Shown here: in pieces, positions 13,958 to 31,265 of the stretch
Layout of the letters: every line of letters begins with the position of its first letter
Numbering within the stretch: the first letter of the stretch is position 1
Assembly: GCF_000016745.1 (NCBI RefSeq)
Contig: NC_009483.1
Coordinates: forward strand, 4,200,001 to 4,232,000
Reading direction: 5' to 3'
Length of the DNA stretch: 32,000 bases
Source: Geotalea uraniireducens Rf4
Lineage (GTDB): Bacteria > Desulfobacterota > Desulfuromonadia > Geobacterales > Geobacteraceae
Made by a program: the position numbers and the translations under genes
Notes under the pieces: generated by a model
What the model was told of the DNA's origin: nothing
The model's database searches: none
What the model saw: the letters and a program-made list of their open reading frames with translations, nothing else

Positions 13958-14004
13958 AGGCGCCATTACGTCCCTGCCACAATACTCACCCCGAAGGAGC
14001 ACCA

Positions 14005-15423: not shown

Positions 15424-15442
15424 TCCTATAAAAAGCATTTTA

Positions 15443-15572
15443 GCCACGAATTTTCACGAATTCGCACGAATATACAAGCTCTTGTGATGCGGAAGACACT
15501 CACCAGATCGGTGACAACTCAAGACTTAATAAGGGGTTAAAAACATTCGTGTTTATTCGTGTCATTCGTGGC
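15443..15572. repeat. Long hairpin with oligomer-repeat arms (GCCACGAATTTTCACGAATTCGCACGAATA ... ATTCGTGTTTATTCGTGTCATTCGTGGC)
   Basis: Arms at 15443-15472 and 15545-15572 are complementary, each built from reiterated CACGAAT / ATTCGTG units. About 70 nt lie between them. Confidence 0.8.
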
Positions 15573-16232: not shown

Positions 16233-18764
16233 TCAAGCGCGTAGTTTAAGACAGATCACCGCCGGTAGCGTGACCAGGGCGAATAAGGCGGTGGCGGCAA
16301 CGCCGTAATTGGTCGCCCAGCCGATGGAGGACATGGCGCCGTAGTCGGTGAACGCCAGCGAGCCGAAACCGGCAATGGTCGTCAATGCCGACAGGAGTAT
16401 GGCCCGTCCCGACTGGACGAACTGGTCCCGGCGCTCGTCAGCACCGGCCGCGGTCACCCGGTGAACGATATGCATGCCATAATCGCTCCCCATGCCGAGG
16501 ATGGTGACCAGCACCATGGCGTTCATGAAATTGAGCCGCATGCCGGTCAGAACCATCAGCCCGAGCATGGCGATTACCCCTCCCACCACGGGAAAGAGCG
16601 CATACCAGATGTCCCGCAAGGTTGAGAAATGGGAGAGAAGCAGAAAGAGCACCATCGCCCCACCCAGCACGAACCCCCAGAAGAAACTCTTCTTTACAGC
16701 ACTGCTCAGCTGGCCGCTGACCAGATCTGCGCTGGTCGCCCGCGCAGCCAAGTCAATGGCCGCCAGTTCCCGGAGAAAGGATTGCTGGGGGAATTCCGCG
16801 CCGCGGTAATTGATGAAGACGAGCAGGTGGTAGCCGCCGCTGTCCCTGACCAGGTGCCGATCCGACACCCCGCGTAACGGCGAACGGCCAAGGCGCTCGA
16901 TTCCTGCCGCCATGTCCACCGGTTGGGCCAGCAGCAGACCGGCAAGGCCGGCAAGGAAAGGCTCAAAGGCCTCCGGAGCAAAGCCGTTTTCCCGCAGGGC
17001 GCCCTGCACCGCCTGAGCCGGCTGCTGCGCCGCCAGGGCTCGATTCAGGGAGGTCAAGACCTCCCCCTGCGTTGTCCGGTCATTGAGCACCTGGCCGAGC
17101 GACGACCAGGAGACGATCTCACCGCGCCGCTGGTAACCCGCCAGCAGTTTTTCCACCCGCCCACCCTGCTCCATCACCTCCACCGGCGAACGCCCTGTCA
17201 GCGCCACCAGCATCTGTTTCGGGCTCAGGCTCAGGTGCTTCTCGATCTTCTCCTGGGTCAGGAACGCCTCAGAATGGCGCGGCTGGAGATTTTTCAACTC
17301 CCCTTCAAAGCCGATGAAGCATGCCGCGATCAAGAGCAGGCAGATCAGCAGCACCGATGCCGCCACCAGCCTGCGCGAGCGCTGCACGCAGGTTTCCCAG
17401 ACCCAGCCGAGGCCGAATCGCGGCAGAGGGCGATAGGATGCGGCGGGGAAGCGCTGTTCGGCGAACAGCAGGAGCGGCGGCAGGAAAAAGAAGGTGGCAT
17501 AGAGAGAAAAGATCACCCCGAGACCTACCAGCAACCCCAGTTCGAACAGGGCGCGCACATCCGAAACAGTGAGCGCCAGGAACGGCAAGGCGGTGGTGGT
17601 CGCGGCGGTAAAGACGCCATGGCCGGTCTCGACCATCGCCAGCCGCAGGGCCTCGCCGGTTTCCCGGCCGGCGCTCCGCTCCGTATAAAAACGGTCATAG
17701 AGATGGATGGAGTAATCGGTGCCCAGGCCGATGATCAACGCGGTAAAGGCGAAGGATATGATGCTGATGGAGGAGAGAAACAGCCCGGCGCTGCCAAGGG
17801 CCAGCACGACCCCGTAAAAGAGGATCAGCGGGATCAGGAGAGTGGGGAGGACCCGGCGATAGGTAAGGTAGAACAACCCCAGCACGACGAACAGGGAAGA
17901 GACCACGCAGGCGATGATGTTCTGCTTCATCACCTGTTCGTCGATCACCGCGCTCAGATGGGCGCCGGCGCAGGAAACCTTCACCCGCGCCCCGCGGCGG
18001 ATCTCATTGATGCCGGCGACGAGTTTTCTGGCAAAGGCCATGTTCTGCACCGGCTGGGCCGGTTCGGCGATCATGATCAGCACCCGGCCGTCGCGGGAGA
18101 GGAAGTAGGGTGAAGAGGGATCAAGGGCCAGGGCCTGGCTCCCCTTTTTCAGGCGCGGCAGGATAAACTCCCGCAGGTAGAGCGGATCGGCGGCAATTAT
18201 ATCACGCATTCCCATCCCCGCCTGGCTGGCCAGTTCGGTCCTGGCCCGTGCCAGCGCCCGGTCGAGAGCCGGCCTCTCAAAGCGCGCTGCATAGTCGCCG
18301 GCAGCCGCCGGATCGAGGAAGAGTTGCGGGTTGCCTACCGCATAGCCGATGAATTCGGCGAAGGAGGCGGCCTCAGACGTGTCGTAGACCCGGTAATTCA
18401 CCTTGCGGAATGCGTTTCTGCCATCAACCTGCAGCGCCCTGAGCCTGGTAGCCAGGTTTTCCGCCTCGCCTGGCAAAAGCGCCGGCTCCCCCTCCAGCAG
18501 GAAATAGACCTCTTTGGCGCTGCCGGTCCATTCCAGCGAATCGAGGAACAGCCTGAGCGGCCCTTGCTGCGCCGGAAACAGCTTGAAGATGTCCGCTTCG
18601 AAACGGGTGGTGGCGATGACAGCGATGGCCGGAATCAGCAGAAAGAGCGCGACGCCGACCACCCGCCGGGGGTAAGCGGAGGTGATACGGTAAATCCACT
18701 GGAGATGCCGGTTGACGAGCAGCTGGAAGGCGCGGGTTATGTTATGGAAGATGGCATGTGACAT
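16233..18764 (-). CDS. MMPL/RND-superfamily exporter (about 12 TM, two large periplasmic loops)
   Basis: Two homologous membrane bundles with GLGTDYSIHLYDRF and GMGSDYGMHIVHRV motifs. 843 aa. Starts 17 nt downstream of the LolA-like gene. Confidence 0.85.
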   Translation of the reverse strand: MSHAIFHNITRAFQLLVNRHLQWIYRITSAYPRRVVGVALFLLIPAIAVIATTRFEADIFKLFPAQQGPLRLFLDSLEWTGSAKEVYFLLEGEPALLPGEAENLATRLRALQVDGRNAFRKVNYRVYDTSEAASFAEFIGYAVGNPQLFLDPAAAGDYAARFERPALDRALARARTELASQAGMGMRDIIAADPLYLREFILPRLKKGSQALALDPSSPYFLSRDGRVLIMIAEPAQPVQNMAFARKLVAGINEIRRGARVKVSCAGAHLSAVIDEQVMKQNIIACVVSSLFVVLGLFYLTYRRVLPTLLIPLILFYGVVLALGSAGLFLSSISIISFAFTALIIGLGTDYSIHLYDRFYTERSAGRETGEALRLAMVETGHGVFTAATTTALPFLALTVSDVRALFELGLLVGLGVIFSLYATFFFLPPLLLFAEQRFPAASYRPLPRFGLGWVWETCVQRSRRLVAASVLLICLLLIAACFIGFEGELKNLQPRHSEAFLTQEKIEKHLSLSPKQMLVALTGRSPVEVMEQGGRVEKLLAGYQRRGEIVSWSSLGQVLNDRTTQGEVLTSLNRALAAQQPAQAVQGALRENGFAPEAFEPFLAGLAGLLLAQPVDMAAGIERLGRSPLRGVSDRHLVRDSGGYHLLVFINYRGAEFPQQSFLRELAAIDLAARATSADLVSGQLSSAVKKSFFWGFVLGGAMVLFLLLSHFSTLRDIWYALFPVVGGVIAMLGLMVLTGMRLNFMNAMVLVTILGMGSDYGMHIVHRVTAAGADERRDQFVQSGRAILLSALTTIAGFGSLAFTDYGAMSSIGWATNYGVAATALFALVTLPAVICLKLRA

Positions 18765-18781
18765 GATAGTGTTCGCCGGGT

Positions 18782-19390
18782 CTACTCCAGCAGGAAATCC
18801 TTATCCTTCAGCCCCGCGTTGCGGCGCATGTTGGCAAACCTGATGACGGTACGGTCACGGTTGCGCTCCTCGATGACGAGCCGCTTGATCTTCCCTTCGC
18901 CGTCAAAGCTGATCTGCAGCTCCTTTATCCCCCCCTTGCTCTTGGGAAAGACCTGCATGGTCCAGTTGCCGCCCTGGCGCTCCGCCCGCACATCAGCCCC
19001 CTCGGGCAGGGCGGTAAGCGGCTTGGCCAGGTAAGAGAACCATTTTTCCAGGCTCTCCTCCGGCGGCAGCACGATCCGGTCGGTCACCCCCTGCTCCGGC
19101 AGCCGGATCGTCAGCACATTGTCCCGCAGGAGCAGGCGGCTCGCATAGGGAGGAAAGAGCTCCATAAAGAACATGCCCGGCTTTTTGAAGCGGACCACCC
19201 CCTTGGAGACCATCTTCCGTTTCATCAGGGCCAGCTGCTTTTCCTGGACAATTTCTGCGGTAAAGTCGGACATGCCGGCAAACCCGTGCCGCAGCGTCTC
19301 CAGCGCCTCCAGCGCCTTATCCTGGGCAGCGTGGGCAGAAGGAGCGAGACAGGTAAAAATTATCAGTACTACCAGCAACACCTTTTTCAT
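18782..19390 (-). CDS. LolA-like outer-membrane lipoprotein carrier family protein
   Basis: Signal peptide MKKVLLVVLIIFTCLAPSAHA. LolA-type pattern F.AEIVQEK......VSKGVVRFKKPGMFFMELFPPYASRLLLRDNVLTIRLP. Confidence 0.8.
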   Translation of the reverse strand: MKKVLLVVLIIFTCLAPSAHAAQDKALEALETLRHGFAGMSDFTAEIVQEKQLALMKRKMVSKGVVRFKKPGMFFMELFPPYASRLLLRDNVLTIRLPEQGVTDRIVLPPEESLEKWFSYLAKPLTALPEGADVRAERQGGNWTMQVFPKSKGGIKELQISFDGEGKIKRLVIEERNRDRTVIRFANMRRNAGLKDKDFLLE

Positions 19391-19464
19391 GGGCTTCCCG
19401 TAAAAGTCAGATAAGAAAACATTTCTACAACCGGCAATAAAGCAATCCTGTCCCTGTCATCCAG

Positions 19465-19487
19465 TGAAAAAGCCCTTGCAAAAGGGG
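19465..19487 (-). terminator. Weak intrinsic terminator candidate after the last island gene
   Basis: On the minus strand: CCCTT-ttgc-AAGGG followed by CTTTTTC. The stem is only 5 bp. Confidence 0.25.
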
Positions 19488-19566
19488 GGGAGACCATATA
19501 CGGACAACGCTGAGTTTGTCTTTCCTTTTGTTGAGACCATTCCGGCACCATCAACGAATTGATCAA

Positions 19567-20610
19567 CTATTCCTTGACGGTGTTGTCTTCTTCGCTACTA
19601 TCCGAAAACTCCGCCTCTAACTCCTCAATGGTTGGCAGGCTCCCTTTCAGGTTTTCCGGAATAGCGGCCACCAATTGATATTCGGATACACCCACCGGCT
19701 TTAAAATGTCTTTCAGTGCATACTCTGCAATTAATCCCTTTCGATCTTTGCAGAGAATCAGACCAATTGACGGATTATCGCTTTCATGCCGCATGGTGGC
19801 ATCCACAGCCGAGAGATAAAAATTGAGTTTCCCGGCATATTCCGGTTTAAAGGAGGTCGCCTTCAGTTCGATCACCACATAGCAGCGGAGTTTCAGGTGA
19901 TAGAACAGCAGGTCTATGAAAAAATCTTCTCCCTCCACTTCCAGGTGTACCTGCCGCCCAACAAAGGAGAAACCGGTCCCAAGCTCCAGTAAAAAACTGG
20001 TAATGTGCTTCACCAGTTCGCGCTCAACTTCACGTTCCTGGGCCTCATTGCCAAGTCCCAGAAAGTCGAACAGATATGGGTCTTTCAAAGTCTGATGCGC
20101 CAGATCGGATTGAGACGGAGTTAGAGTAGCGGCAAAGTTGCTGACAGCTTTTCCTTGTCGATGAAAGAGGCGAGACTCAATCTGCATTACCAGAATGTCG
20201 CGCGACCAGCCATGTTCGAATGCCTTGTGGATGTACCATTCCCGCTCTTCCGGTAATTTGACCTTCTGAATGAGGCGGACAATATGACCCCAGGGCAATT
20301 GTGAAACAAGCTGTTTCACTTTTTCCTCATCCGTGTACGCCTCGGCAAAAGCTCGCATAAACAGGAGGTTCCTGGGAGAAAACCCCTTCATATCCGGAAA
20401 CTCGGCACGTAAATCCCTTGCCAGTCGCTCTGTAACCTTGGCGCCCCATCCTTCTCGCTCCTGCCGTTCGAGGATGTCACGGCCGATCTGCCAGTAGAGC
20501 AGTACCAGTTCGTGGGTAACCGCCAGCGCCGCCCGCGTCCTGGCGGTGCGTATGCGCGCCTTCAGGTCGTGTAGAAAATGGTTGTAAGCGGTGGTGTCAA
20601 GGGTGGTCAT
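19567..20610 (-). CDS. DUF1016/YhcG-family PD-(D/E)xK nuclease domain protein
   Basis: ATG 20610 is preferred (GGAGA 5 nt upstream); the ORF track uses TTG 20622. N-terminal YhcG-like region (LLYWQIGRDILERQEREGWGAKV...LPWGH). C-terminal FIDLLFYHLKLRCYVVIELK nuclease motif. Confidence 0.85.
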   Translation of the reverse strand: MTTLDTTAYNHFLHDLKARIRTARTRAALAVTHELVLLYWQIGRDILERQEREGWGAKVTERLARDLRAEFPDMKGFSPRNLLFMRAFAEAYTDEEKVKQLVSQLPWGHIVRLIQKVKLPEEREWYIHKAFEHGWSRDILVMQIESRLFHRQGKAVSNFAATLTPSQSDLAHQTLKDPYLFDFLGLGNEAQEREVERELVKHITSFLLELGTGFSFVGRQVHLEVEGEDFFIDLLFYHLKLRCYVVIELKATSFKPEYAGKLNFYLSAVDATMRHESDNPSIGLILCKDRKGLIAEYALKDILKPVGVSEYQLVAAIPENLKGSLPTIEELEAEFSDSSEEDNTVKE

Positions 20611-20625
20611 GTTTTTCTCCAAAAC

Positions 20626-21618
20626 TCAATCATTCTTCCGATTGATCAGATTGACAATCACCTTAGCGATGGTCTCCTTCTCTTCCGGCCGACTTTCGGC
20701 AATGAGCAGGGTCAGCGCCACCAGAGCGTTGTCGGCCAGCCGCTTGCTGCCGTCGGGGCGGTAGAGGATGCCGTTCATGCCGAGGAAATAGATAAACAGG
20801 GCAGCGGCGATCCGTTTGTTGCCGTCACTGAAGGCGTGGTTTTTGACGACGAAGTAGAGGAGGTTGGCCCCCTTTTCCTCTACGCTGGGGTACAACTCCT
20901 CGCCGCCGAAGGTTTGGTAGATGGCCCCCAAGGCGCTCTTGAAACCCTGGTCCTTCTCGATACCGAACAGACCGTCGAAATCTCCCTTCATGGAGATAAC
21001 AATACCTATGGCTTCGTCATAGTCGATGACGTGCAGCGCCTGCCGGGTAGTCTCCTCGATGGACAGAGTGCCGTGGTCGTAGCGATCCAGGAGGGTCAGG
21101 GCATAAGCGTAATCGGTGATGACCCGCAGCACGTCCTTGCCGGTTTCATTGACCAGTTCCTGGTTGGCCAGGGTGCGGGCCAGCAGTTCCACGGTCCGGC
21201 GCATATCGGTCAGCTTTTCGGCCTGCTCACGGAAGCGCTGTTCGTTAACGGTGTAGCCTTTGACGATGTGGTCGCGCAGGACATGCGTAGCCCACTGGCG
21301 GAAGCGGGTGCCTTGCTGCGACTTGACCCGATAGCCGACGGAAATGATGACATCCAAATTGTAGTGGGCGGTATCATAGGTTTTTCCATCAGCGGCAGTT
21401 ATCCGGAATTTCCGGATAACTGAAGATTCATCCAACTCACCCTCGCGGAAAATATTCCTGATGTGTTCGTTGATTGTTCTAACATCCTTATTGAAAAGCT
21501 CGGCCAGTTGCTTTTGGGTCAGCCAGACGGTCTCTTTTTCGAGATGCACCGCAAGCGAGGTTGCCCCATCCGGGGTCTGGTACAGGACGACAGCATTGTC
21601 AGTAATGGTCATACTCAT
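20626..21618 (-). CDS. RhuM-family N-terminal domain fused to a Fic/Doc-type domain
   Basis: RhuM-like region: VVLYQTPDG...VWLTQKQLAELF...TINEHIRNIF...HYNLDVIISVGYRVKSQQGTRFRQWAT. The C-terminal core motif HAFSDGNKRIAAA has Lys at the Doc-type position (HxFxDGNKR). Confidence 0.85.
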   Translation of the reverse strand: MSMTITDNAVVLYQTPDGATSLAVHLEKETVWLTQKQLAELFNKDVRTINEHIRNIFREGELDESSVIRKFRITAADGKTYDTAHYNLDVIISVGYRVKSQQGTRFRQWATHVLRDHIVKGYTVNEQRFREQAEKLTDMRRTVELLARTLANQELVNETGKDVLRVITDYAYALTLLDRYDHGTLSIEETTRQALHVIDYDEAIGIVISMKGDFDGLFGIEKDQGFKSALGAIYQTFGGEELYPSVEEKGANLLYFVVKNHAFSDGNKRIAAALFIYFLGMNGILYRPDGSKRLADNALVALTLLIAESRPEEKETIAKVIVNLINRKND

Positions 21619-21683
21619 GCCTCAATAAAATCTAGTGAAAATTGCAATATGCATTTTTTGCAAATTGCTTTTTCGTTGGACTA

Positions 21684-23132
21684 CTACCCTTCTGCAAATG
21701 CATCACGCAAGTGATTTTTGCCGTCGGCGGCAGCTGTTTCCAAAAAGGAAATAGCTGCCTGCTCGTCCTGCTCAATGGCAATTTCCACGGCACGCTTGGC
21801 GGTTTCGAGTAAAGCGGTGGATTGCTTTTTGAGCGCAAGAGAGGAAATAATCTTCTCTCGGATTTTCAACTGGGTGTCTTTGGCTACAAAAGGGATAAGG
21901 ACTTGGGCAACATCTTTCGGGTATAGGTGCGGCTGTGCCGAACCGGTTCTCATTTTCTCGGTTTGAAGACGACCAATAAATGAGTTAATTACAAACGCGA
22001 CATACACGGGGTCTTCAATAACCCGAAGAATGATAATATCTTGGCATGCGACCGCCTTTTTCTCAGAAAGATAAGGCTGAGCTCTCCCGATATTTGCACC
22101 TGTCCCATAGATGAGAATATCGTTCTCTGCAACAAAAGATGTTTCCTCTGTTGAGAAGTGCTTTATATTGGTTTTGTCGAAGTTGTCGTAATTCAGTCCA
22201 GCTTCAAGGATATGTTTCTGGGTAATCATATCGACGGTTCCGGTCTCGTCATAAATTGCAGCCATCCCGCGTGAATTATAGGTTTGAATCTCCTCAACCC
22301 GCTTGAAATACTCACCATTGCTCTTGATGAGTTCTTCTATTTCGTCAAACATCGGCTGGTAATACTCCGCATCCATACGACCAGATGCGACGAAAGACTC
22401 CTTGAACGATTTGATGTTGGTGTTTTTGGTGGTGGGGGTGTAGGTGGCGAGGTTTAGTGCGTTGAGCAACAGGGTTTCGGCATTTTTATAGGAAGCTATT
22501 CCTTTGGATGAAACTTCGACCGAGTTCTGATGCAATTCAACAATTCTATTCTGAAATTCCTGCCCGAATAGTGGGATGAAAACGTCTCTTATATCTTCCA
22601 AGTGAAGATCGGGTTGACTTGCACCTTTTTGCACGCGCAGCAATTGTGTTTGACCACTTTCACTATTGATAAATGTTGCCAAAACTTCCGGCGCAATTAA
22701 TTCGGTTCTTGGTCGAAGTAATGCGACGCTCACAAAAATACTGAAGACTGGCAAACCTTCTGGAACTACAGCAGCCCATCGCGGGCCAACACCAACTTTA
22801 CGAAGCAATACATCCCCAGGCTGGGGATCACATCTTCGATAAAGATTATCGTGTTCTTCAGAACTGATGAATCGGTGCCCAGCTTCAAGGCTTAGCGAAT
22901 TTTCCAATACATTCAGCGCGGAAAGAAATGGGACGCCATTTTCTGTATAACTCGGCGTGAAGTGTGTTCCGTCAGAAATCTTATTCGTAAGAGTAGAAAG
23001 AAGCACAGGACTTTTACTCTTTAATAAATTTTCCAAAGAAAGATATTTTTTCTGGTAATACTCAGCTTCCATGCGAACAGGCTTGTGAAGCGATGAAAAT
23101 AATATCTCGCTAATCTCAAGCCCTTCCAACAA
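21684..23132 (-). CDS. hsdS: Restriction-modification specificity subunit with two target-recognition domains
   Basis: Internal duplication RMEAEYYQKKY / RMDAEYYQPMF and KGASQPDLHLEDIRDVFIPLF / TGSAQPHLYPKDVAQVLIPFV. Starts about 30 nt after the methyltransferase stop. The start is uncertain: it is a TTG and the frame stays open upstream without ATG, GTG or TTG. Confidence 0.85.
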   Translation of the reverse strand: MLEGLEISEILFSSLHKPVRMEAEYYQKKYLSLENLLKSKSPVLLSTLTNKISDGTHFTPSYTENGVPFLSALNVLENSLSLEAGHRFISSEEHDNLYRRCDPQPGDVLLRKVGVGPRWAAVVPEGLPVFSIFVSVALLRPRTELIAPEVLATFINSESGQTQLLRVQKGASQPDLHLEDIRDVFIPLFGQEFQNRIVELHQNSVEVSSKGIASYKNAETLLLNALNLATYTPTTKNTNIKSFKESFVASGRMDAEYYQPMFDEIEELIKSNGEYFKRVEEIQTYNSRGMAAIYDETGTVDMITQKHILEAGLNYDNFDKTNIKHFSTEETSFVAENDILIYGTGANIGRAQPYLSEKKAVACQDIIILRVIEDPVYVAFVINSFIGRLQTEKMRTGSAQPHLYPKDVAQVLIPFVAKDTQLKIREKIISSLALKKQSTALLETAKRAVEIAIEQDEQAAISFLETAAADGKNHLRDAFAEG

Positions 23133-23161
23133 CGCCCGATAACGGGCTTCATCGAAAGGGC

Positions 23162-25378
23162 CTAAAGAAAAAAACTTAGGCGCTCCTTTTTGGCAAATTC
23201 GATAAAAGCCTCGGCAATGCCGTCTTGGGTCAAGCCGTCGTGATTGAACAGGTCGTGCTTGACGATCAGGTGTTCATGGGCATCCAGCACAAATTCGTTG
23301 AGGTCTTGCGGCGTGGCTTCGTAGCGATTAATCACTTCGGCGGCGATGTTCTTGGCAGGCGTCTTTTCTGCGCTGGCCACTGCCGGCAAGTCCTTGCGTT
23401 TCACAAATATCTTATCGCCGCTATTGTCCTTGCTCGGCTCCTTCATGGTGGCAAAAAAGATGTGGTAATCGTCCACCCTGGGGCAGAGCTTGTCGTCCCA
23501 CTTTTGCACGAATATCACGCTGGTTTTGGTGCCGGTGTGCGGCTTGAACACGTTGCCGTGCAACCCCACCACGGCCAGGATGCGGCAATGGTCGGCCAGG
23601 TATTCGCGGATGTATTTGTCGCTGGAGTTGTTAAAGCGGCCCTGCGGCAACACAATCGCCATCCGCCCGCCGGGCTTGATGAAGCTCAGATTGCGCTCGA
23701 TAAACAGGATGTCGCGACCGACATTGTTTTGGTCTTTGATTTTTACCTTGCGGAACGAGCCGTCGGCCATTTTGTAGATGGTATCAAAGCTGGCGCGCAA
23801 GCACTCCGGGAAAGTCGGCACGCGCTGGGTCGCATCCTCGATGTTCTTGTCGTTCTCATCGACCTTGCTAATCTTGTCCAGGCTCACGGTTCGTGCCAAT
23901 TCATATTTGGCCAGAATACGGGTTTCCTTGATGTCACCCGCAAACGGTGGATTGGCCATGAGGATGTCAAAGGAGAAGTCCCTGTCTTGCTCTTTGGCCG
24001 CTCTCTGTTTGCGCAGCTTTTTCCAGCCTTCGCTGTAAATGTCAGTCCAATTTTGGTCTTTGGTTTTTTCGTCCCAACGTTCGTAATCCAAGGTGTTGAG
24101 GTGCAGCACGTTGGTTTGGCCGTCACCGGCGATCAGGTTCAGGGTCCGGCCTACGCGCACGGCCTTTTCGTCAAAGTCGATGGCAAATACTTTATCCTGC
24201 ACGTAGTCTGTCTCGCGCGGTGTGCGTTGCTCTGTAGTGAAGTGATCGCTTATGGGTAAGCCAAGATCACGCCGGATCTGATGCCAGACATGAAAAATGG
24301 TGTGCACCGGAAAGCCGCAACTACCAGCGGCGGTGTCGATTATCGATTCGTGCTCCTGCGGATTGAGCATCTTGACGCACATATCAATTACGTAGCGCGG
24401 AGTGAAATACTGCCCTTTCTCCCCCTTGCTGCTTTTATTGATGAGATACTCGAAAGCCTCATCCACCACGTCCAGATTGGAGTTAAACAGCTTCACCCCT
24501 TCCAGTGACGATACGCACACAGCCAGGTGGCTGGGGGTGAGATCGATTTTTGCGCCATCGGGAAATACCCCTTCCCACTTGCCGCGAGCTTTGTCGAACA
24601 ACTCCTGGATTTTGGCTTTGAGTTCGGTTTCGGTGTCGCCATAGTTTCTAAAAATGAGATGGCGCTTTTTGTCGCGCCCACTTTCCATTTCGTCATACAG
24701 CTTGGTAAAGATTAGTTTGAACAGCTCCTCAAAGACATCCACGCCGGCGTTGGCGAGAACTTCATCCTCCATCTCCAGAATCAGGTCTTTGAGCGATTTC
24801 TTTTGATTGACCAGGACGTCGTGTTTTACAAGGTCGTCAAGCGTCCAGCGCGCTGTCAGGATGTCGGAAAGCTTTTCATGGGCCGAGGGGATGGCAGGGA
24901 TAGGCTCAAAGTAGTTCGGGTCTTTACGGTGATAGAACGAAATGCTGTCACCATTACTCCAGACCCCCATAGGTGCGCCACTGAAATTGCAATAACTTTT
25001 GAGCTGTTCTTTGCCATCTTTGAGTTTGGGCTTCTTTAACTCCACCAAGATGTAAGGGGTAGTTGTTTTGTCCTTATCAAAAACACAGATATCAACCCGC
25101 TTTTTTTCGCGACCACGAGTTACGTCGTATTCAAGAGAAAGGCGATTGATTGGATAGTCCAGATCATCTTTGAGCACCATCACATACAACTGGCGCACAG
25201 CTTCCTCGGGCGTGAGCTTGATCGGTTTGCCGCGCACCAGGCAAGAGACGTAAGGGGCGGGATTCTTCTCCGTCTCCTTCATCGTGATGCTAGCCTCTAA
25301 TGCTTGAATTTGAGCTGGTTTAAATTGCGTGAGCTTGTAGGCGCTGTCTTTGAGTAGTTCGGCCAGTGTGATCGTCAT
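23162..25378 (-). CDS. N6-adenine DNA methyltransferase with N-terminal PD-(D/E)xK (HsdR-N-type) nuclease-like domain, a putative R-M fusion subunit
   Basis: AGGAAA SD. N-terminal RVDICVFD...YILVELKKPK. Methyltransferase motif I IIDTAAGSCGF and motif IV MANPPFAG. 738 aa, with long spacers around motif IV. Confidence 0.8.
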   Translation of the reverse strand: MTITLAELLKDSAYKLTQFKPAQIQALEASITMKETEKNPAPYVSCLVRGKPIKLTPEEAVRQLYVMVLKDDLDYPINRLSLEYDVTRGREKKRVDICVFDKDKTTTPYILVELKKPKLKDGKEQLKSYCNFSGAPMGVWSNGDSISFYHRKDPNYFEPIPAIPSAHEKLSDILTARWTLDDLVKHDVLVNQKKSLKDLILEMEDEVLANAGVDVFEELFKLIFTKLYDEMESGRDKKRHLIFRNYGDTETELKAKIQELFDKARGKWEGVFPDGAKIDLTPSHLAVCVSSLEGVKLFNSNLDVVDEAFEYLINKSSKGEKGQYFTPRYVIDMCVKMLNPQEHESIIDTAAGSCGFPVHTIFHVWHQIRRDLGLPISDHFTTEQRTPRETDYVQDKVFAIDFDEKAVRVGRTLNLIAGDGQTNVLHLNTLDYERWDEKTKDQNWTDIYSEGWKKLRKQRAAKEQDRDFSFDILMANPPFAGDIKETRILAKYELARTVSLDKISKVDENDKNIEDATQRVPTFPECLRASFDTIYKMADGSFRKVKIKDQNNVGRDILFIERNLSFIKPGGRMAIVLPQGRFNNSSDKYIREYLADHCRILAVVGLHGNVFKPHTGTKTSVIFVQKWDDKLCPRVDDYHIFFATMKEPSKDNSGDKIFVKRKDLPAVASAEKTPAKNIAAEVINRYEATPQDLNEFVLDAHEHLIVKHDLFNHDGLTQDGIAEAFIEFAKKERLSFFL

Positions 25379-25452
25379 GAAGTTTTCCTATGCTATGTTC
25401 GGTTAAGTTCTTGTTGTTGATTACAGTTTTAAGTGCCGCCCATGGTTGGATG

Positions 25453-26334
25453 CTACAAATCATATTCAAAAAAATCCGAATCAACCTTTTTAATTTCGTA
25501 AATTGACTCTACAGAGACACCGACACCATGATCGATCATATATTCTGCGAGTTGGGAGCCATCGATAAGAATGATACGAGAAGAATACTCTTTTACTGAG
25601 GCAAGAGCGTCTTTGGTGAAATTAGAAGTGGTAATGAATATACCTTTTGAAGCTTTTTTTTTAGAAAGGGCGCCTGCAAATTGGTCGATGTCTGGGCTAC
25701 CAACGGGTTTATCAGTCCATCGTTTTGCTTGAATATAGATGTTGTCTAGGCCAAGTTTATCTTCTCTGATAACACCATCTATTCCACCATCGCCAGTTTT
25801 GCCAACCGCTTGACCAGCATCTTTCAATGATCCGCCATAACCCATTTTGACTAGTAAAAGAATTACGAGCCTTTCAAAAAACTGCGGTGAACATTTTTTT
25901 ACTTTATCAAGAATCTCAGAAGCTAATGCATGTCGAATTTGCTCATAATGCGATGCAATTGATTCAATTGGCGTGTCATGTGGCGTTGAGTCATTTTCTT
26001 TTTTACTCTTCTTCTTGCCTTGAAATTCCAGAAATTCCGCAAATTGTGACAAAAGTTTATTGTCAATTCGACTTGGCTTTTTCTTGAGAACGTCAACACC
26101 TCTTTGAGTAATTTTGAAAAAGCCGCGTCGAGTAGCTTCCAGTAGGCCGGCTTTTTGTAAATATGTTCTCGCCCATGAAGCTCTGGACGAAAATTTGAAT
26201 GTCCCCCCGCTTGGCAACAATTCTTTTCTTTCCTCTTCTGTTAGCTTGAAATCATCAGCCAACTGGTCAATCGCTGCGGACAGTTGCAGTTCGTTGCCAT
26301 TCGCTTTGGCTGCGATTTGCATCAATGGGAGCAT
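25453..26334 (-). CDS. mrr: Mrr-family (type IV, modification-dependent) restriction endonuclease
   Basis: N-terminal Mrr_N-type winged helix (ELLPSGGTFKFSSRASWARTYLQKAGLLE...RGFFKITQRG). C-terminal catalytic region GDGGIDGVI...IYIQAKRW. Confidence 0.85.
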   Translation of the reverse strand: MLPLMQIAAKANGNELQLSAAIDQLADDFKLTEEERKELLPSGGTFKFSSRASWARTYLQKAGLLEATRRGFFKITQRGVDVLKKKPSRIDNKLLSQFAEFLEFQGKKKSKKENDSTPHDTPIESIASHYEQIRHALASEILDKVKKCSPQFFERLVILLLVKMGYGGSLKDAGQAVGKTGDGGIDGVIREDKLGLDNIYIQAKRWTDKPVGSPDIDQFAGALSKKKASKGIFITTSNFTKDALASVKEYSSRIILIDGSQLAEYMIDHGVGVSVESIYEIKKVDSDFFEYDL

Positions 26335-26445
26335 AATGTAGATTCATAATCAGGAATAGGCATCTCAATATCTCCGTTTCTTGTTCATCCAACGGTTTCG
26401 CCAGTCACCTGACGTGAAGCGATGGTTCGGCTCTCGCAGCACTCG

Positions 26446-26838
26446 TTACGCTGCCAGCTCTTGCAGCACCTCGGGATGTCGTGAAGCTACTTTCAGTAAG
26501 GTAGCTGCCGCTCCGGATGGCATTTTTCGCCCCTGCTCCCATTCCTGAAGCGTACGCACCGAAACTCCAAGAAGCTTGGCAAATGCAGCTTGAGACAATC
26601 CCGTTGCCGCTCTTGCTGTAGCGACCAGAGCTTTTTCAGCCGGGATGATTTCGTCTTTCTCTATTGTTCCGTCGCGTCTGGTAATAATGCGACGAACTGA
26701 CCCGTCCGGTTGTGTAATAAATTCGGTTTTCCTAGCCCAATCGCCGCGTTTCATTTCGCGTAAGGACTGCAAAAGCTCAGCGTTAAGATCCCGCTTTTTT
26801 TCCCATGCAGCCAGTTCTTTTTCAGACAATTTAACCAT
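26446..26838 (-). CDS. higA: HigA2-like antitoxin with C-terminal XRE-type HTH
   Basis: ATG 26838 is preferred (AAGGAGG 9 nt upstream). It overlaps the toxin stop as ATGGTTAA. HTH: TGLSQAAFAKLLGVSVRTLQEWEQGRKMP. Confidence 0.8.
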   Translation of the reverse strand: MVKLSEKELAAWEKKRDLNAELLQSLREMKRGDWARKTEFITQPDGSVRRIITRRDGTIEKDEIIPAEKALVATARAATGLSQAAFAKLLGVSVRTLQEWEQGRKMPSGAAATLLKVASRHPEVLQELAA

Positions 26839-27145
26839 TTTCAAATACCTCCTTGAGGCGTCTCAGCAATTTGGGGTCTATGTTTTCTTGTACGTTTTTC
26901 GCATACATTGTCACCAGCACTATCTGTCCGGGATTGAGACGTAGGAAATAAATCACCCGCACGCCTCCCCGCTTGCCACGTCCCTCGATTGCCCATCGCA
27001 GTTTCCGGCAGCCGCCGGAGTGAGGGATAACGTCGCCCTTATCAGGGTGTTCAGTCAGATAAAGCTGAAGTGCCGCGAATTCGTCATCGTTCAGATACTT
27101 GTCACGAACAGTGGCAAATGGATGCAATTCGATGAATGTGAGCAT
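26831..27145 (-). CDS. higB: HigB2/RelE-superfamily toxin
   Basis: 104 aa. GGCRKLRWAIEGRGKRGGVRVIYF...IVLVTMYAKN signature. The toxin-first gene order is typical of HigBA. Confidence 0.8.
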   Translation of the reverse strand: MLTFIELHPFATVRDKYLNDDEFAALQLYLTEHPDKGDVIPHSGGCRKLRWAIEGRGKRGGVRVIYFLRLNPGQIVLVTMYAKNVQENIDPKLLRRLKEVFENG

Positions 27146-27156
27146 GATTTAAATAT

Positions 27157-27169
27157 ACGTCTTAGACGT
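27157..27169. promoter_or_regulatory. Palindrome ACGTCT-T-AGACGT just upstream of the toxin start, a possible TA operator
   Basis: Perfect 6+1+6 palindrome 12 nt upstream of ATG 27145, embedded in an AT-rich tract (tttaaatat) that could serve as a -10 region. Confidence 0.3.
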
Positions 27170-27316
27170 AGACTGGTCAAGGGGAAATATTTTCATTTTC
27201 TTCTTTCGCCTTTATTCTGCCGAACATATTGGTCAGCTGATCCGCTACTAAATATACAATCACGCATAAAGCCGCATTGAATCACGAAATACGGATTTCA
27301 ATTAACGCAACCAGCA

Positions 27317-27342
27317 TAAAAAACAACACCGGTTTTTAACCG
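27317..27342 (-). terminator. Intrinsic terminator candidate after the dehydratase gene
   Basis: On the minus strand: CGGTT-AAA-AACCG followed by GTGTTGTTTTTTAT, 10 nt after the stop. The stem is short. Confidence 0.35.
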
Positions 27343-27352
27343 AGCCTTTTTT

Positions 27353-27766
27353 TCACATCTTCCCCACCGCCAGGGTGAGCGTGGCAGAAGCAATGACCTT
27401 TCCTTCCGACCGCACCTCCCCCTCCACCAGGTGGAGCGTGCCGAAGGATTTGACGATGCGGGTCGCGACCAGGAGCCTTGCACCGGCAGGCACTGCGGCA
27501 GGCAGTTCCCCCCGCTCGATGGCGGCAAGGACCCCACCTGCCCCTTCCTGCTGGCCTGCGGCGATGCCGCCCAGCTGGGCCATGGATTCCAGGAGGAGCA
27601 CCGGCGGAAAACAACCGCAACCGGCAGTGACCACAACCTCACCTGTGGCGCACACCCCCGGTTCAAGGGTGATGATCCTGTCGACAAAGAGAAACGGGGA
27701 GCGATGGGGAAGATAGTGGGAGGGGTCAGGGTTGAACAGGGTCGCCTCCCCTGAAATCGATGGCAT
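27353..27766 (-). CDS. FabZ/FabA-like hot-dog fold (3-hydroxyacyl-ACP) dehydratase homolog
   Basis: LPHRSPFLFVDRI and LLLESMAQLGG match FabZ signatures. The usual GHFP reads GCFP, so the catalytic His appears replaced. This ATG overlaps the upstream gene by 41 nt, so the start is uncertain. Confidence 0.7.
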   Translation of the reverse strand: MPSISGEATLFNPDPSHYLPHRSPFLFVDRIITLEPGVCATGEVVVTAGCGCFPPVLLLESMAQLGGIAAGQQEGAGGVLAAIERGELPAAVPAGARLLVATRIVKSFGTLHLVEGEVRSEGKVIASATLTLAVGKM

Positions 27767-28775
27767 AATACGGTCCTTCAGGTGAGGCAGCCAGATGCAG
27801 GCCGTTGCAGCCGGGCTGAAGCGCGAGAACGAGGGCTGTCATGGCAAGCCCCCCCATGGCAATCGAGCGGCCGATGAGCGGGGCGGTCTCCAGCCGGGTA
27901 ACGGCCGGCAGGCGGTCCAGAAGCGGCTTTTCGGCAGCCGCGGTGCCGGACAGACCAACGAGGCTTGCGTCCGTCACCCCGGCAAGGAGCCGATCGGCCC
28001 CTTCCCCTTCATGACCGGGGATAAGCCTGCCGATGGTCCGCACACACCCCACGCGTCCTCTGGCCGGGGCATTGCGCCGTCGGGCATGCGACCCTCTTTC
28101 CAGCACCAGAATGCCCGCCCCTTCGCCGAAACCGGCCCCATGGCGCCTTAGCTGGCCTGTGGCCGCGAATCCTTTCAGCATGGCAGGGGTGAGTTCATCC
28201 ACGCCTCCGGTCAGGATAATGTCCGCCCGATCCTCCTGCAGGAAGCGGCAGGCCATCATGAAAGCCGACTCGGCAGAGCAGAAACGCTGGACAAATGTGA
28301 CGTTGGGCCCCTTCAGGCCGTGCTCGATGGAGGCGTTGCTGGCCGATGCATTGGGAACCGTGTTGGGAAAGAGCATCGGCGTCAGCCCTTCGGCGCCGGC
28401 GGTAAAGTAACCGCGGAGGAACTCTTCCGAGTTGGCGATGCCGCCGAAACCGCAACCGAGGACAATGCCGATCCGGTCGGCATCGAGAGTGGCCGGTTCA
28501 ATGCCGGCGTCCTTGAGGGCCATGCCCGTGGCGACAACCGCAAACTGGCTGCAACGGTCGAATTTGCGGGCCTTGAGCGGCGGTATGAAGTCGACTGCCC
28601 TGAAACCATCCGCCTTCCCCCACAGGTGCCCCGATTCGCCGAGGATATCCGCCGGGACAGGTTTAAGCAGGCTTTCGCCGCGGCTCAAGGCTTCGCGTAA
28701 GCTGTCGAGCCCGACGCCGGCCGCCGAGATGGCGGCCATGCCGCTGAGTACTATGTCGTTGCCAATATCGCTCAT
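27726..28775 (-). CDS. Beta-ketoacyl synthase-like protein lacking the His-His dyad (chain-length-factor-like partner)
   Basis: Thiolase fold: GPNVTFVQRFCSAESAF...ILTGGVDE...GFGEGAGILVLE. No HxTAP or NxHGT motifs in the shortened C-terminal half (349 aa). ATGA start/stop overlap with the upstream KS. Confidence 0.75.
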   Translation of the reverse strand: MSDIGNDIVLSGMAAISAAGVGLDSLREALSRGESLLKPVPADILGESGHLWGKADGFRAVDFIPPLKARKFDRCSQFAVVATGMALKDAGIEPATLDADRIGIVLGCGFGGIANSEEFLRGYFTAGAEGLTPMLFPNTVPNASASNASIEHGLKGPNVTFVQRFCSAESAFMMACRFLQEDRADIILTGGVDELTPAMLKGFAATGQLRRHGAGFGEGAGILVLERGSHARRRNAPARGRVGCVRTIGRLIPGHEGEGADRLLAGVTDASLVGLSGTAAAEKPLLDRLPAVTRLETAPLIGRSIAMGGLAMTALVLALQPGCNGLHLAASPEGPYYAIDFRGGDPVQP

Positions 28776-30022
28776 ATTCCCAACACCAGACTGGTGATGT
28801 TCCCCCCGAAAGCAAAGGAGTTGGAAAGCGCCACCTTCGCGGCGCTCTGCTTCGCACCCGGATGGCGGTAATCCAGGTCGCAGTCGGGGTCAGCCCCTCT
28901 GAAATTGAGGGTCTGCGGGATAACGCCCTCGTTCAGGGCAATGACCGTGGCCAGGGCCTCGATGGCCCCAGCCGCGCCAAGGCAGTGGCCGGTGAGGGCC
29001 TTGGTCGAAACCAGCGGCACCCCCATCGCTCGATTGCCGAATACCAGCTTCATCGCCTTTGTCTCCACCACATCGTTGAGCGGAGTCCCCGTGCCATGGG
29101 CATTGACCCAGCCGACCTCGTCAACGGAGACCCCGGCCTGGTTCATGGCTGCGGTCATTACCCGGGCCGCATCGGCGCCGCTCGGTTCCGGGGCGGTCAT
29201 GTGATAGGCCTCGCCGGCAACCGCATAGCCGAGAACATGGCCATAGACGCGTGCACCGCGACGTATGGCACTCTCTTCGTCTTCCAGCACCAGGAATGCC
29301 GCCCCTTCCCCCAGCGATATCCCCTGCCGTCCCAGGCTGAAGGGGGCGCAAGGTTCGGCATCGACCACCCGCAGGGAGTTGAATCCGGCAAAGGTGAGAA
29401 TGGAGAGACAGTCCGAACCGCCGCAGACAGCCGCCTTCAACCTGCCGGTGGCGATCAGGTCTGCCCCCCAGCCGATGGCGGTGGCCGACGAGGAGCAGGC
29501 TGTGGTGATGCTCCCCAGGTAGCCGCCAAGGTTGTAGGCGACGGCAATGGCCATCGAAGTCCGGTCAGGCAAAAGTCCGCGCAGGAGGGAAGGTTTTCCC
29601 TTCTTGCCGGCCAGGGTTTCTTTCAGCCACTCCTCGGCCTGGAGCATGCCGGCGGCGCCGGCCCCCATGGAAATGCCGATGTCGTAAGGGGAATAACAGC
29701 CGCAGACGCCGCTATTGTCCAAGGCCTCGCCGGCGGCGATGACGCCGAACTGGTCGGCGCGGGAGAGCTTTTTTGCCTGCTTTGCCGTGAAATGATCGAG
29801 CGGATCGAAGCCATGGACCTGGGCGCCGATCCCGGCGGCAAAAGGGCCGACATCGAACAGGTCGATCGGCCCAATGGCGCTGCGACCCTTCAGGAGCGCG
29901 TCGGTGAATGACGGCACATCTTTTCCGGCAGCGGAGAAGATGCCGAGACCGGTTATGGCTATTCTTTTACGTTCCATCATACTCTTCGTGGCGATCGCCG
30001 CCGTTTTCCTCACATGCAACAT
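28772..30022 (-). CDS. fabF: Beta-ketoacyl-ACP synthase II-like condensing enzyme
   Basis: Cys-His-His triad motifs ITTACSSSATAIG, EAYHMTAPEP and NAHGTGTPLND, plus GHCLGAAGAIE. The true start may be the ATG at 29977-29980 (MERKRIAITG). Confidence 0.9.
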   Translation of the reverse strand: MLHVRKTAAIATKSMMERKRIAITGLGIFSAAGKDVPSFTDALLKGRSAIGPIDLFDVGPFAAGIGAQVHGFDPLDHFTAKQAKKLSRADQFGVIAAGEALDNSGVCGCYSPYDIGISMGAGAAGMLQAEEWLKETLAGKKGKPSLLRGLLPDRTSMAIAVAYNLGGYLGSITTACSSSATAIGWGADLIATGRLKAAVCGGSDCLSILTFAGFNSLRVVDAEPCAPFSLGRQGISLGEGAAFLVLEDEESAIRRGARVYGHVLGYAVAGEAYHMTAPEPSGADAARVMTAAMNQAGVSVDEVGWVNAHGTGTPLNDVVETKAMKLVFGNRAMGVPLVSTKALTGHCLGAAGAIEALATVIALNEGVIPQTLNFRGADPDCDLDYRHPGAKQSAAKVALSNSFAFGGNITSLVLGI

Positions 30023-30312: not shown

Positions 30313-31053
30313 TCATACTACGCCGCCGTCAACGACCAGGCACTGGCCGGTGATATACGACGCCCGCTCCGAGGCGAGGAACGCCACCGCCTCGGCAACC
30401 TCCTCGACCCTGCCGATCCGCCCCAGCGACGCGCTCTTGACGATTTTATCCACCATTTCGGGCTTCATGGCAGCGGTCATCTCCGTCTCGATCAGTCCCG
30501 GCGCCACGGCATTGACCCTGATCCCCATCGGCCCGACTTCCCTGGCCAGCGAACGGGTGAAACTCATCGCCGCCCCCTTGCTTGCTGCGTAGTTGGTCTG
30601 TCCGGCAGTGCCGGTCAGGGCGGAGATGGAGGAGAGGTTGACGATAATCCCGCGCCGGTTGCCGATCATCTTCCGCACCCCCCACTTGCAGCAGTGGAAC
30701 AGCGGGTAGAGGTTCCCCCTGAGCACCGCATCCCAGTCCTCGTCGGACATCATGGGGAGGTAGCCGTCGCGGATTATGCCGGCGTTGTTGACGAGGATAT
30801 CGATGGCGCCGCCGTCTCCTGCCGCTGCCTCCATAAGGGCCATGGCCCCCTCGGCGGTGGCAACGTCCGCCTTCACCGCACTGATCGTGCCTGCCAGACC
30901 GAAAGCCTCTTCCATCAAGGCCGCGGCCGCAGCATCGTTAGTCAGATAAGCAGCGGTGACCTGCGCCCCGAGCCGGGCGAAGTGCAGCGAGATGGCCCGG
31001 CCGATCCCTCTGGTGCCGCCGGTGACGACGACGATCTTGTCCTTGAACTCCAT
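30313..31053 (-). CDS. fabG: 3-oxoacyl-ACP reductase (SDR family)
   Basis: GAGGAG SD. Motifs TGGTRGIGRAI and NNAG, and the catalytic S...YAASKGA. Confidence 0.9.
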   Translation of the reverse strand: MEFKDKIVVVTGGTRGIGRAISLHFARLGAQVTAAYLTNDAAAAALMEEAFGLAGTISAVKADVATAEGAMALMEAAAGDGGAIDILVNNAGIIRDGYLPMMSDEDWDAVLRGNLYPLFHCCKWGVRKMIGNRRGIIVNLSSISALTGTAGQTNYAASKGAAMSFTRSLAREVGPMGIRVNAVAPGLIETEMTAAMKPEMVDKIVKSASLGRIGRVEEVAEAVAFLASERASYITGQCLVVDGGVV

Positions 31054-31080
31054 GGTTACTCCTCAATACATTTAGATCCA

Positions 31081-31255
31081 CCACGAAATCACGGAGAAAG
31101 GCAGAACCTATTTACCGCAAAGACGCGAAGAGAACCTAAAACCTTTTTGGATTTAAACCAAAAGATTCCAGGATCTTAAACCCGGTCTTTGTTTTTCTTT
31201 GCGTCTTTGCGGTTCGATGGTTCTCAGGTACTGCCTTTCCTCTGTGTCTCTGTGG
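31081..31255. repeat. Nested long hairpin (CCACGAAATCACGGAGAAAGGCAG / CTGCCTTTCCTCTGTGTCTCTGTGG; CCGCAAAGACGCGAAGA / TCTTTGCGTCTTTGCGG)
   Basis: Outer arms at 31081-31104 and 31231-31255; inner arms at 31115-31136 and 31195-31212. A lone related half-site, ccgcaaagacaccaggagac, lies at about 30235-30256. Confidence 0.75.
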
Positions 31256-31265
31256 CAAATGGTAG

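Follow-up and report, generated by a model that had tools for sequence, protein, structure and literature searches.

A defence island inside a lipid biosynthesis and export operon of Geotalea uraniireducens: polymorphic cargo in a short spacer and a candidate frameshift cassette in its RM–S genes

How does a block of defence genes come to lie within a biosynthetic operon with no mobility gene beside it? The question is raised by a 32-kb stretch of DNA from Geotalea (Geobacter) uraniireducens (the window, whose positions serve as coordinates throughout), in which seven minus-strand genes, among them a toxin–antitoxin (TA) pair and the RM and S genes of a restriction-modification (R-M) enzyme, separate the gene for a hot-dog dehydratase (DH) from that for a LolA-like protein. 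An earlier note on this DNA had described them as an AT-richer defence island and had left two explanations side by side, an integration hotspot exploited by recombination and an element whose mobility functions have decayed. From the comparisons below, we consider it likely that the segment 19425–27275 is horizontally acquired defence and addiction cargo in a hotspot flanked by core genes, with scar-free turnover by recombination. The RM/S junction within this cargo raises a second question, namely how an S subunit without a start codon is made.

Insertion into the DH–LolA spacer

If the island is an insertion, its flanks should meet in relatives that lack it, as the earlier note had pointed out, and they do. 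We aligned LolA-like homologues (alignment A1), took 80 genome and 80 metagenome loci with 10-kb flanks, and located 13 window proteins in them by tblastn. DH and LolA are both present in 79 of the 80 genome loci and adjacent in all 79, separated by −7 to 409 bp (median 26 bp); both are present in 74 of the 80 metagenome loci and likewise adjacent in 73, the exception being L090, a 75-kb contig. DH thus lies directly upstream of LolA in 152 loci from Geobacteraceae/Desulfuromonadales, over the same range of gaps, and tblastn found no match to any of the seven island proteins in these 152 empty loci. The island is therefore an insertion, inside an operon, into a spacer that normally measures a few dozen bases.

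Its exact limits are given by L090, where blastn aligned (96% identity) contig positions 5438–9234 with window positions 31063–27276, and 9968–15486 with 19424–13903. Homology stops at 27276 and resumes at 19424, and the refined boundaries leave the 77 bp that follow the DH stop codon and the 34 bp that precede the LolA start codon in the conserved flanks:

16233–19424, minus strand: conserved left flank, with 34 bp upstream of the LolA start and the LolA-like and MMPL genes (Pfam, NCBIfam and blastn against L090)
19425–27275, minus strand: variable segment that forms the island, 7851 bp long in the window against 733 bp in L090 (blastn of L090 against the window)
27276–27766, minus strand: conserved right flank, with the DH gene and 77 bp downstream of it, including a weak hairpin and T-run at 27329–27343

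GC content, GC at third codon positions (GC3) and tetranucleotides all set the island apart from its flanks in composition and codon usage, as the earlier note had expected. The island has a GC of 0.485, against 0.598 for its flanks; GC3 runs from 0.34 to 0.72 in island genes and from 0.70 to 0.84 in flank genes, except one at 0.61; and 2-kb chunks lie at a tetranucleotide distance of 0.31–0.55 from the flank centroid inside the island, but 0.21–0.30 outside. The island is also the mosaic that had been described, the mrr (GC 0.404) and S (GC 0.442) genes being the most AT-rich and the RhuM-Fic gene nearly host-like (GC3 0.72).

The view that the seven genes are ancestral and were lost elsewhere, or that their position is an assembly artefact, has one point in its favour, their co-orientation with the operon, and is effectively refuted. 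It would have to set 152 empty loci across the family against a single occupied species complex, and it is contradicted by the foreign composition and by cargo homologues 72–88% identical in unrelated phyla. Moreover, both junctions recur in assemblies built independently from other runs (L001, L004, L005), which excludes a mis-assembly.

The reported lack of mobility genes and junction repeats was upheld on a wider scale. Across the 32-kb window we found no tRNA gene and no integrase or transposase domain in any open reading frame tested, and no Rfam family was found. At the junctions, a repeat search and comparison of the breakpoints by eye yielded no direct or inverted repeats, target duplication or att-like repeat. 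The non-coding gaps inside the island, at most 207 bp, are too short for a hidden decayed recombinase. With no recombinase, no tRNA or att target and no flanking repeats, the segment does not qualify as an integrase-mediated genomic island or a prophage remnant.

Cargo states, host operon and route of entry

Cargo was found at the site only in contigs whose LolA is 85–95% identical to that of the window, plus L090, and its content differs between them. The suggestion that other cargo might occupy the same site in relatives was thereby confirmed, with four cargo states at the same breakpoints (flank proteins 85–98% identical):

Rf4 (window): seven genes
L086 (LolA 95%): RhuM-Fic directly upstream of LolA, no yhcG
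L088 (LolA 85%): RhuM-Fic directly upstream of LolA, no yhcG
L087 (LolA 94%, MMPL 91%): a different 343-aa RhuM, 42% identical, no Fic, 12 bp from LolA
L090 (flanks 96–98% identical in nucleotides over ~15 kb): truncated divergent rhuM only, 733-bp variable segment

In all four states the cargo is co-directional with the operon, and in L086, L087, L088 and L090 it is rhuM that adjoins lolA. In the window a yhcG cassette (~19425–20625) starts right after the RhuM-Fic stop; L086 (1036–1099) and L088 pass from RhuM-Fic through ~64 bp to lolA. The nearest empty sites (L018 and L091) have LolA proteins only 76–77% identical, and occupancy thus appears specific to one species complex. A further contig, L089 (DH 92% identical), was discarded as an informative state, since it ends 44 bp after the DH stop, diverging after ...CCGGTGT.

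L090 is the most telling of these states. Its DH–LolA gap is 843 bp, and its 185-aa RhuM shares 71% amino acid and 74% nucleotide identity with the N-terminal part of RhuM-Fic, compared with 94–99% identity along the flanks. The cargo was therefore replaced, not merely inherited, and vertical decay alone does not explain it. Flank identity in L090 shows no gradient; the rising divergence towards the island that would mark a recent recombination import is absent from these flanks.

The same contig bears on the possibility that the island is a decayed integrative element, whose site-specific recombinase and att sites were later deleted and whose variants would be stages of decay. L090 does look like a deletion remnant, with its truncated rhuM joined to the 3′ tail that follows RhuM-Fic in L086 and L088, and a tyrosine integrase adjoins the same RM–S module in Duganella. 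However, neither an integrase or transposase fragment nor a tRNA or direct repeat was found, and the short intergenic gaps leave no space for one; the 74% identity of the L090 rhuM against 96% in its flanks, and the 42% identity of the L087 RhuM, indicate replacement and not decay; and in Syntrophaceae the RM–S pair occurs without any mobility gene. We consider this origin unlikely. Between the two explanations of the earlier note, the comparison thus favours the hotspot, albeit a narrow one limited to the G. uraniireducens species complex, over decayed mobility, of which no integrase or att remnant was found.

A somewhat less probable alternative is that the R-M or TA genes drove their own entry, as selfish units inserted by illegitimate recombination or double-strand-break repair around which the other genes accreted later. 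R-M mobility is documented (e.g. PMC3031569), RM–S occurs elsewhere as a bare two-gene insertion between housekeeping genes, and its 72–88% identity across phyla (best 120 matches) is typical of highly mobile R-M units. Against this, the junctions show no target duplication or flanking repeat, the gene common to occupied relatives next to lolA, and the sole cargo gene in L090, is rhuM and not RM–S, and the shared breakpoints of differing states are left unexplained.

Under the hotspot reading, cargo would have entered the very short DH–lolA spacer in an ancestor of the G. uraniireducens species complex and then been acquired, lost and exchanged in gene-sized cassettes (the TA pair, Mrr, RM–S, rhuM variants, yhcG). 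The likely route would be uptake or transduction of DNA followed by homologous recombination, both in the conserved flanks and in internal modules that the states share; this would require no dedicated recombinase and leave no scars. Because the median gap of 26 bp at empty sites is essentially too short to hold a promoter for lolA, exporter expression would be preserved only by cargo that is co-directional and lacks a strong terminator; read-through from the island would thus keep lolA–mmpL expressed and filter the insertions that survive.

Several observations weigh against this reading. L086–L088 are short metagenomic (Logan) contigs of 1.2–4.9 kb that end inside the cargo, so that neither its full content nor the number of independent events can be read from them. 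No closely related, truly empty site was found among the loci, so the original insertion junction is not reconstructable; an ancestral-spacer reconstruction from L018 and L091 was abandoned as these are too diverged to align. With occupancy confined to one species complex, the term hotspot rests on few genomes. Finally, weak hairpin-plus-T-run sites after DH (27329–27343) and after yhcG (19473–19486) speak against read-through. Terminator-like sites are no more frequent in the region than in shuffled sequence, and the hairpin after DH, which the earlier note had listed as a weak terminator candidate, is weak and part of the conserved flank.

Islands of this kind are already known. In the picture drawn of core defence hotspots, DNA brought in by transduction or uptake can be exchanged without scars through homologous recombination in conserved flanks (PMC10250203), and the present site resembles cDHS1/2 of Pseudomonas aeruginosa (PMC10250203) and the Escherichia coli hotspots (PMC10121019) in that several defence systems lie between fixed core genes, with content that varies between close strains, atypical GC and no consistent mobile-element signature; transfer through recombination in the conserved flanks has been proposed there too. 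It differs in being small (0.7–7.9 kb), occupied in one species complex only and represented so far by a handful of states, and in lying inside a co-transcribed biosynthetic operon rather than between separate transcription units. What is unusual here is that position and the clean comparative resolution. The arrival of the cargo is best fitted by the core defence hotspot picture, with a decayed element or a self-driven R-M or TA insertion possible for the founding event.

The host locus is a type II fatty acid synthase (FAS)/polyketide synthase-like lipid biosynthesis and export operon. Its DH protein matches 'FabZ family protein [Geotalea uraniireducens]' at 100% identity, and the LolA-like homologues are all from Geobacteraceae. 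Minus-strand transcription runs through the radical-SAM fragment, KR, KS, KS-like, DH, the seven island genes, LolA-like and MMPL, which are followed by a convergent PagL-like gene; redox proteins are encoded at 1–8300. The operon genes in the window are:

Right of KR, minus strand: radical-SAM fragment
30313–31053, minus strand: KR
28772–30022, minus strand: KS
27726–28775, minus strand: KS-like partner
27353–27766, minus strand: FabZ/ApeP-like hot-dog dehydratase, DH (Pfam, NCBIfam; ApeP-like match faint, FabZ model below cutoff)
18782–19390, minus strand: LolA-like (closest NCBIfam model the flexirubin LolA2, LolA2_flexi, below cutoff)
16233–18764, minus strand: MMPL exporter (Pfam)

Farther upstream, L090 encodes an LPLAT acyltransferase, an acyl carrier protein (ACP), a B12-radical-SAM protein, a FabD-like acyltransferase, a 4HBT thioesterase and a second B12-radical-SAM protein. 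The earlier note had called the locus aryl-polyene-type, and the resemblance in components stands, the set of KS/CLF, DH, KR, ACP, LPLAT, thioesterase, LolA-like and MMPL being present. As in aryl-polyene and flexirubin-type clusters, which are type II FAS-like, LPLAT, ACP, FabD-like, 4HBT, KR, KS, KS-like, DH, LolA-like and MMPL genes form one co-directional block. The label goes no further than this resemblance; family models match only below their cutoffs: LolA2_flexi and FabZ fall below threshold and the ApeP-like match is faint. Unlike those clusters, the host locus has several B12-radical-SAM genes interleaved, and no aryl starter-unit enzyme was found in the ~10 kb examined upstream.

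Gene order in the cluster varies by genus. Geobacter sp. AOG1 has a ~1160-aa open reading frame between lolA and mmpL, alike by size alone to the alpha-amylase-like gene of the window, and the shared ~4.3-kb LolA–MMPL spacing makes the same arrangement probable in others of L006–L010, L013 and L014 (10600–15000). In Geotalea mmpL directly follows lolA and the large gene lies farther downstream (window 16233–18764 and 9864–13331, respectively). Two short window segments, 31064–31262 and 13736–13902, are missing from the 96–98% identical L090; they are mutually unrelated, and neither has a further copy in the window. The first, 199 bp between radical-SAM and KR, is a long imperfect hairpin (−76.9 kcal/mol) with a MITE- or REP-type look.

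Empty-site DH–lolA spacers longer than ~100 bp are filled by simple or palindromic repeats, such as GGTGAGA-type tandem heptamers in L006 (9830–9990) and CACGAAGG palindromes in L063 (9760–9940). The L017 spacer (4170–4215) has a C-run/TTTGCAAA/G-run hairpin resembling the one after yhcG in the window (19473–19489). We considered the latter motif, CCCCCCTTTTGCAAGGG, as a dispersed repeat and dropped the idea: it occurs once in the window, at least one match arises in 21 of 100 shuffles, and a related consensus, CCCCYTTTGCAARRGGGG, matched only L017 among 89 loci.

Island genes and the RM–S enzyme

Searches with Pfam, PADLOC, NCBIfam and PHROGs agree on the seven genes and families between DH and LolA as first described, all on the minus strand, in transcription order after a promoter-like site:

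27152–27180, minus strand: promoter-like site of the TA operon, TTGACC-17-TATATT (10/12 matches, best in the region)
26831–27145, minus strand: RelE/ParE-superfamily toxin, 104 aa, PF06296/DUF1044 type (Pfam 29 bits, cutoff 27; PHROG 5869, 1.4e-30, full length)
26446–26844, minus strand: Xre-HTH antitoxin, ~130 aa, NadS/YiaG-like (HTH_3 plus the C-terminal part of MqsA; NadS and TIGR03830 below cutoffs)
25453–26334, minus strand: Mrr type IV (modification-dependent) restriction endonuclease (Mrr_N winged helix plus Mrr_cat, full length; PADLOC mREase_IV 7e-76)
23162–25378, minus strand: RM subunit, 738 aa (HSDR_N_2 nuclease plus N6_Mtase, Pfam)
21684–23132, minus strand: S (specificity) subunit with two target-recognition domains (PADLOC Specificity_I 1e-45, full length; the start is the TTG used by gene finders)
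20626–21618, minus strand: RhuM and Fic/DOC fusion, 330 aa (Pfam, PHROGs; PADLOC candidate PDC-S23)
19567–20610, minus strand: YhcG/DUF1016 PD-(D/E)xK nuclease, 347 aa (Pfam; PADLOC candidate PDC-S02)

At least two defence systems are therefore clustered here, PADLOC reporting a type I/II methyltransferase, the S subunit, mREase_IV, PDC-S23 and PDC-S02 in addition to the TA pair. From the known activities of their families, RM and S would methylate host DNA and cut unmodified DNA, and Mrr would cut foreign-methylated DNA.

The TA pair does sit at the upstream edge, as noted earlier, and it has its own promoter-like site and operator-like palindrome there. The toxin and antitoxin reading frames overlap by 14 nt, and the palindrome ACGTCT-T-AGACGT (27157–27169), in the spacer between the −35 and −10 elements, is probably an autoregulatory antitoxin operator. 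Family, gene order (toxin first) and a promoter-like site with a palindrome suggest that RelE/Xre is a type II TA pair; a stabilising role is plausible, as the pair with its own promoter at this edge would make loss of the island costly. In another Geobacter, a metagenome-assembled genome (MAG), an unrelated VapBC-like pair occupies the equivalent place upstream of the same RM–S module. An identity of the antitoxin as MqsA was rejected, its translation having no cysteines and hence no zinc ribbon.

RM consists of an N-terminal PD-(D/E)xK nuclease (D96, E113-x-K115) fused to a gamma-class N6-adenine methyltransferase (DTAAGSCGF, NPPF); D96, E113, K115, NPPF and motif I are invariant across the RM family alignment (A2). 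Its best PDB match is RM.BsaXI (8w0p), although only ~70 residues of the methyltransferase domain are covered. S contains an internal repeat, RM(D/E)AEYYQ, at 22356–22384 and 23052–23080. By gene content, an RM with a two-domain S and no HsdR points to the type IIB RM+S architecture; BsaXI itself is an (RM)2S heterotrimer (PMC11997821). As in BcgI and BsaXI, an RM with an N-terminal PD-(D/E)xK nuclease and gamma-class N6A methyltransferase is accompanied by a separate S with two target-recognition domains and no HsdR motor. The present RM is shorter (738 versus 916 aa), without BsaXI's extra length, and, unlike in BcgI and BsaXI, S follows a slippery site in the −1 frame and in most cases has no start codon. 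A type I R-M system was rejected because HsdR is absent from the island and from four other genomic contexts of homologues, and MADS because MAD2 (304 bits, cutoff 720) and MAD5 (117, cutoff 400) fall short and no other mad genes are present.

RM is 72–88% identical among its best 120 matches, which come from Geobacter, Syntrophaceae, Nitrosospira, Duganella, Pseudomonas and others, and in the homologous loci examined it always occurs with S and never with HsdR. The pair (86–88% amino acid identity) stands alone between housekeeping genes in Syntrophaceae, behind the VapBC-like pair in the Geobacter MAG, and beside an integrase and another Mrr-domain gene in Duganella; it is also carried by a Klebsiella IncF plasmid and, within a plasmid-derived region, by the chromosomes of three E. 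coli genomes. This variety of contexts shows the cargo to be modular. Family members WP_086812921 and WP_086812922 are found both on the conjugative IncF plasmid 2 of Klebsiella pneumoniae INF231 (L232) and in the E. coli E21845/O/A chromosome (2897260–2909785; L230), where they lie next to ptaRNA1 type I toxin and DUF262 genes. Two Syntrophaceae loci, L172 and L174, encode identical RM proteins with S genes of 457 and 477 aa, a pairing consistent with swapping of target-recognition domains within one population.

Going by their gene families, RhuM-Fic/DOC and YhcG would be accessory toxin and nuclease genes typical of R-M loci, where RhuM, DUF1016 and Fic/DOC are known as embedded genes (PMC3710099; PMC9881135). 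As in those loci, RhuM fused to DOC and a DUF1016/YhcG nuclease lie directly beside the methyltransferase and S genes; here, by contrast, they follow a two-gene type IIB-like system instead of lying among type I hsdR, hsdM and hsdS, and the island has no PrrC/HEPN partner.

Every rhuM at the DH–lolA site has a perfect palindrome at codons 63–75, different in sequence in each: 13-bp arms in the window (21396–21422), 14-bp arms in L086 (nt 196–225 of rhuM) with compensatory changes relative to the window, 10-bp arms in L087, and 13-bp arms in L090 (9565–9591), where it encodes TTEESSVVQ instead of SVIRKFRITA. Among 24 distinct rhuM genes, including 35–61% identical ones from viral contigs (L197–L228), the longest palindrome is centred at residues 70–75 in 18. 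Arms of 10 nt or more occur in 13 of the 18, whereas only 0–1 of 200 codon shuffles reach that length. If rhuM genes in general keep a palindrome in position whatever the peptide, selection would probably act here on a hairpin in the nucleic acid of a gene associated with defence. L090 also carries a second, window-type copy of the palindrome (23/25 nt) upstream of rhuM (~9298–9322).

A candidate −1 frameshift cassette at the RM/S junction

The junction between RM and S holds a further element:

23120–23188, minus strand: candidate −1 programmed frameshift cassette (Shine–Dalgarno (SD)-like element, slippery heptamer, spacer, hairpin)

Its parts are AAGGAG (23188–23183), 8 nt, the heptamer T TTT TTT (23174–23168), a 6-nt spacer CTTTAG and a 42-nt hairpin (23161–23120), and the RM stop codon TAG (23164–23162) falls inside the spacer. 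The S frame equals the RM frame shifted by −1. The first ATG, GTG or TTG in the full-length S frame is a TTG at 23132, yet the frame stays open farther upstream, up to the T-run at 23174. For the hairpin region the folding energy is −35.8 kcal/mol (z = −4.4), a stability matched by none of 200 shuffles.

The arrangement is conserved across 17 distinct junctions, from the window, L170–L176, viral contigs L177–L189, E. coli and Klebsiella (L230–L232) and Picosynechococcus PCC 7002. T TTT TTT or T TTT TTC stands in the RM frame in all 17, GC-rich hosts included, and S is at −1 in all except PCC 7002, where the two are fused in frame. A hairpin (−15 to −31.5 kcal/mol, z −4 to −10) begins 5–7 nt after the T-run in 15 of 15 junctions folded, and SD-like AAGGAG or AAGGAA lies 8–10 nt upstream of the T-run in 12 of the 13 checked. 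Because the 5′ hairpin arm of the long-loop class was broken up when all junctions were aligned with MAFFT, arms were counted by position and the formal test was confined to the 42-nt class. There, 88.8% of cells are paired (37–60% in slid controls), and the covariation score is 0.259, compared with at most 0.14 in slid controls and 0.183 ± 0.018 in shuffled ones (0/500). Both sides change in four stem pairs, three of them (5–38, 8–35 and 16–27) in at least three sequences; pair 5–38 is U-A in six sequences and C-G in five, and pair 8–35 C-G in seven and U-A in three. The long-loop class adds A-U and G-C at the same stem position.

The codon at the S start position is not conserved, being ATG in two lineages (in an ATGA overlap with TGA), ATA in the L182–L186 group (four distinct junctions), TTG in two, and TTA, CTA or absent in the remaining junctions, the window included. 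Over the nine codons upstream of the annotated S start, synonymous/non-synonymous differences number 327/429 in the S frame versus 94/606 and 64/656 in the other frames; this stretch evolves as coding sequence in the S frame only. PCC 7002 plasmid pAQ6 encodes a natural in-frame RM–S fusion, a single chain of 1179 aa (...KKEKLSFFEQSPF...YERLMDGLE...), and P0305 (970 aa) is an RM fused to half of S. Distant homologues (40–45% identical) have ordinary ATG starts and no T-run. Gene callers shorten S to 319 aa in two assemblies (L001 6748–7707; L004 7440–8399), and NCBI starts the E. coli S homologue at TTG ('LEGLE...'); both are probably mis-annotations that stem from the missing start codon.

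The −1 frameshift signal of E. coli dnaX comprises an SD-like element, A AAA AAG, a 6-nt spacer and a hairpin. The junctions match it in AAGGAG 8–10 nt upstream, an X XXY YYZ heptamer in the 0 frame, a 5–7-nt spacer and a stable hairpin, and differ in the predicted product, here a longer RM–S fusion, as in IS3-family transposases, whereas the dnaX shift gives a shorter one. On this sequence evidence we see about an even chance that in the RM+S family, in which this reading takes in Geobacter, Syntrophaceae, Duganella, E. coli, the Klebsiella plasmid and viral contigs, synthesis of the S domain depends largely or entirely on −1 programmed ribosomal frameshifting where the RM gene ends. Frameshifting would yield an RM–S fusion of ~1230 aa and ~138 kDa, with the predicted junction peptide ...LSFFSLGPFDEAR, alongside free RM, and its efficiency would set the RM:S ratio of an (RM)2S-type enzyme.

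Two other accounts bear on the same features. The hairpin could instead hide an internal TTG or ATG start for translational coupling, although the coding constraint seen ahead of such a start makes this less likely. Transcription could also slip on the T-run, with a fusion product identical to that of frameshifting. A point against the hairpin as a frameshift element is that PCC 7002 keeps it despite its in-frame fusion; there it may have a further role, or the fusion may be recent.

In the literature searched, we found no report of recoding or frameshifting in R-M systems. If confirmed, the RM/S junction would be, as far as that literature shows, the first case of recoding in a restriction-modification enzyme. 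It would explain how the RM:S subunit stoichiometry is set and why S genes of the RM+S family are routinely mis-annotated, and the same cassette in E. coli and on a Klebsiella plasmid places it in hosts convenient for experiments. As for the island that carries it, 152 empty sites and exact breakpoints make the locus a well-controlled example outside model organisms. It suggests that defence genes can settle in an intra-operon spacer only a few dozen bases long and be replaced there through exchange of cassettes without a recombinase, provided that they are co-directional, which bears on the origin of defence hotspots that lack mobile-element scars and on their cost to host operons.

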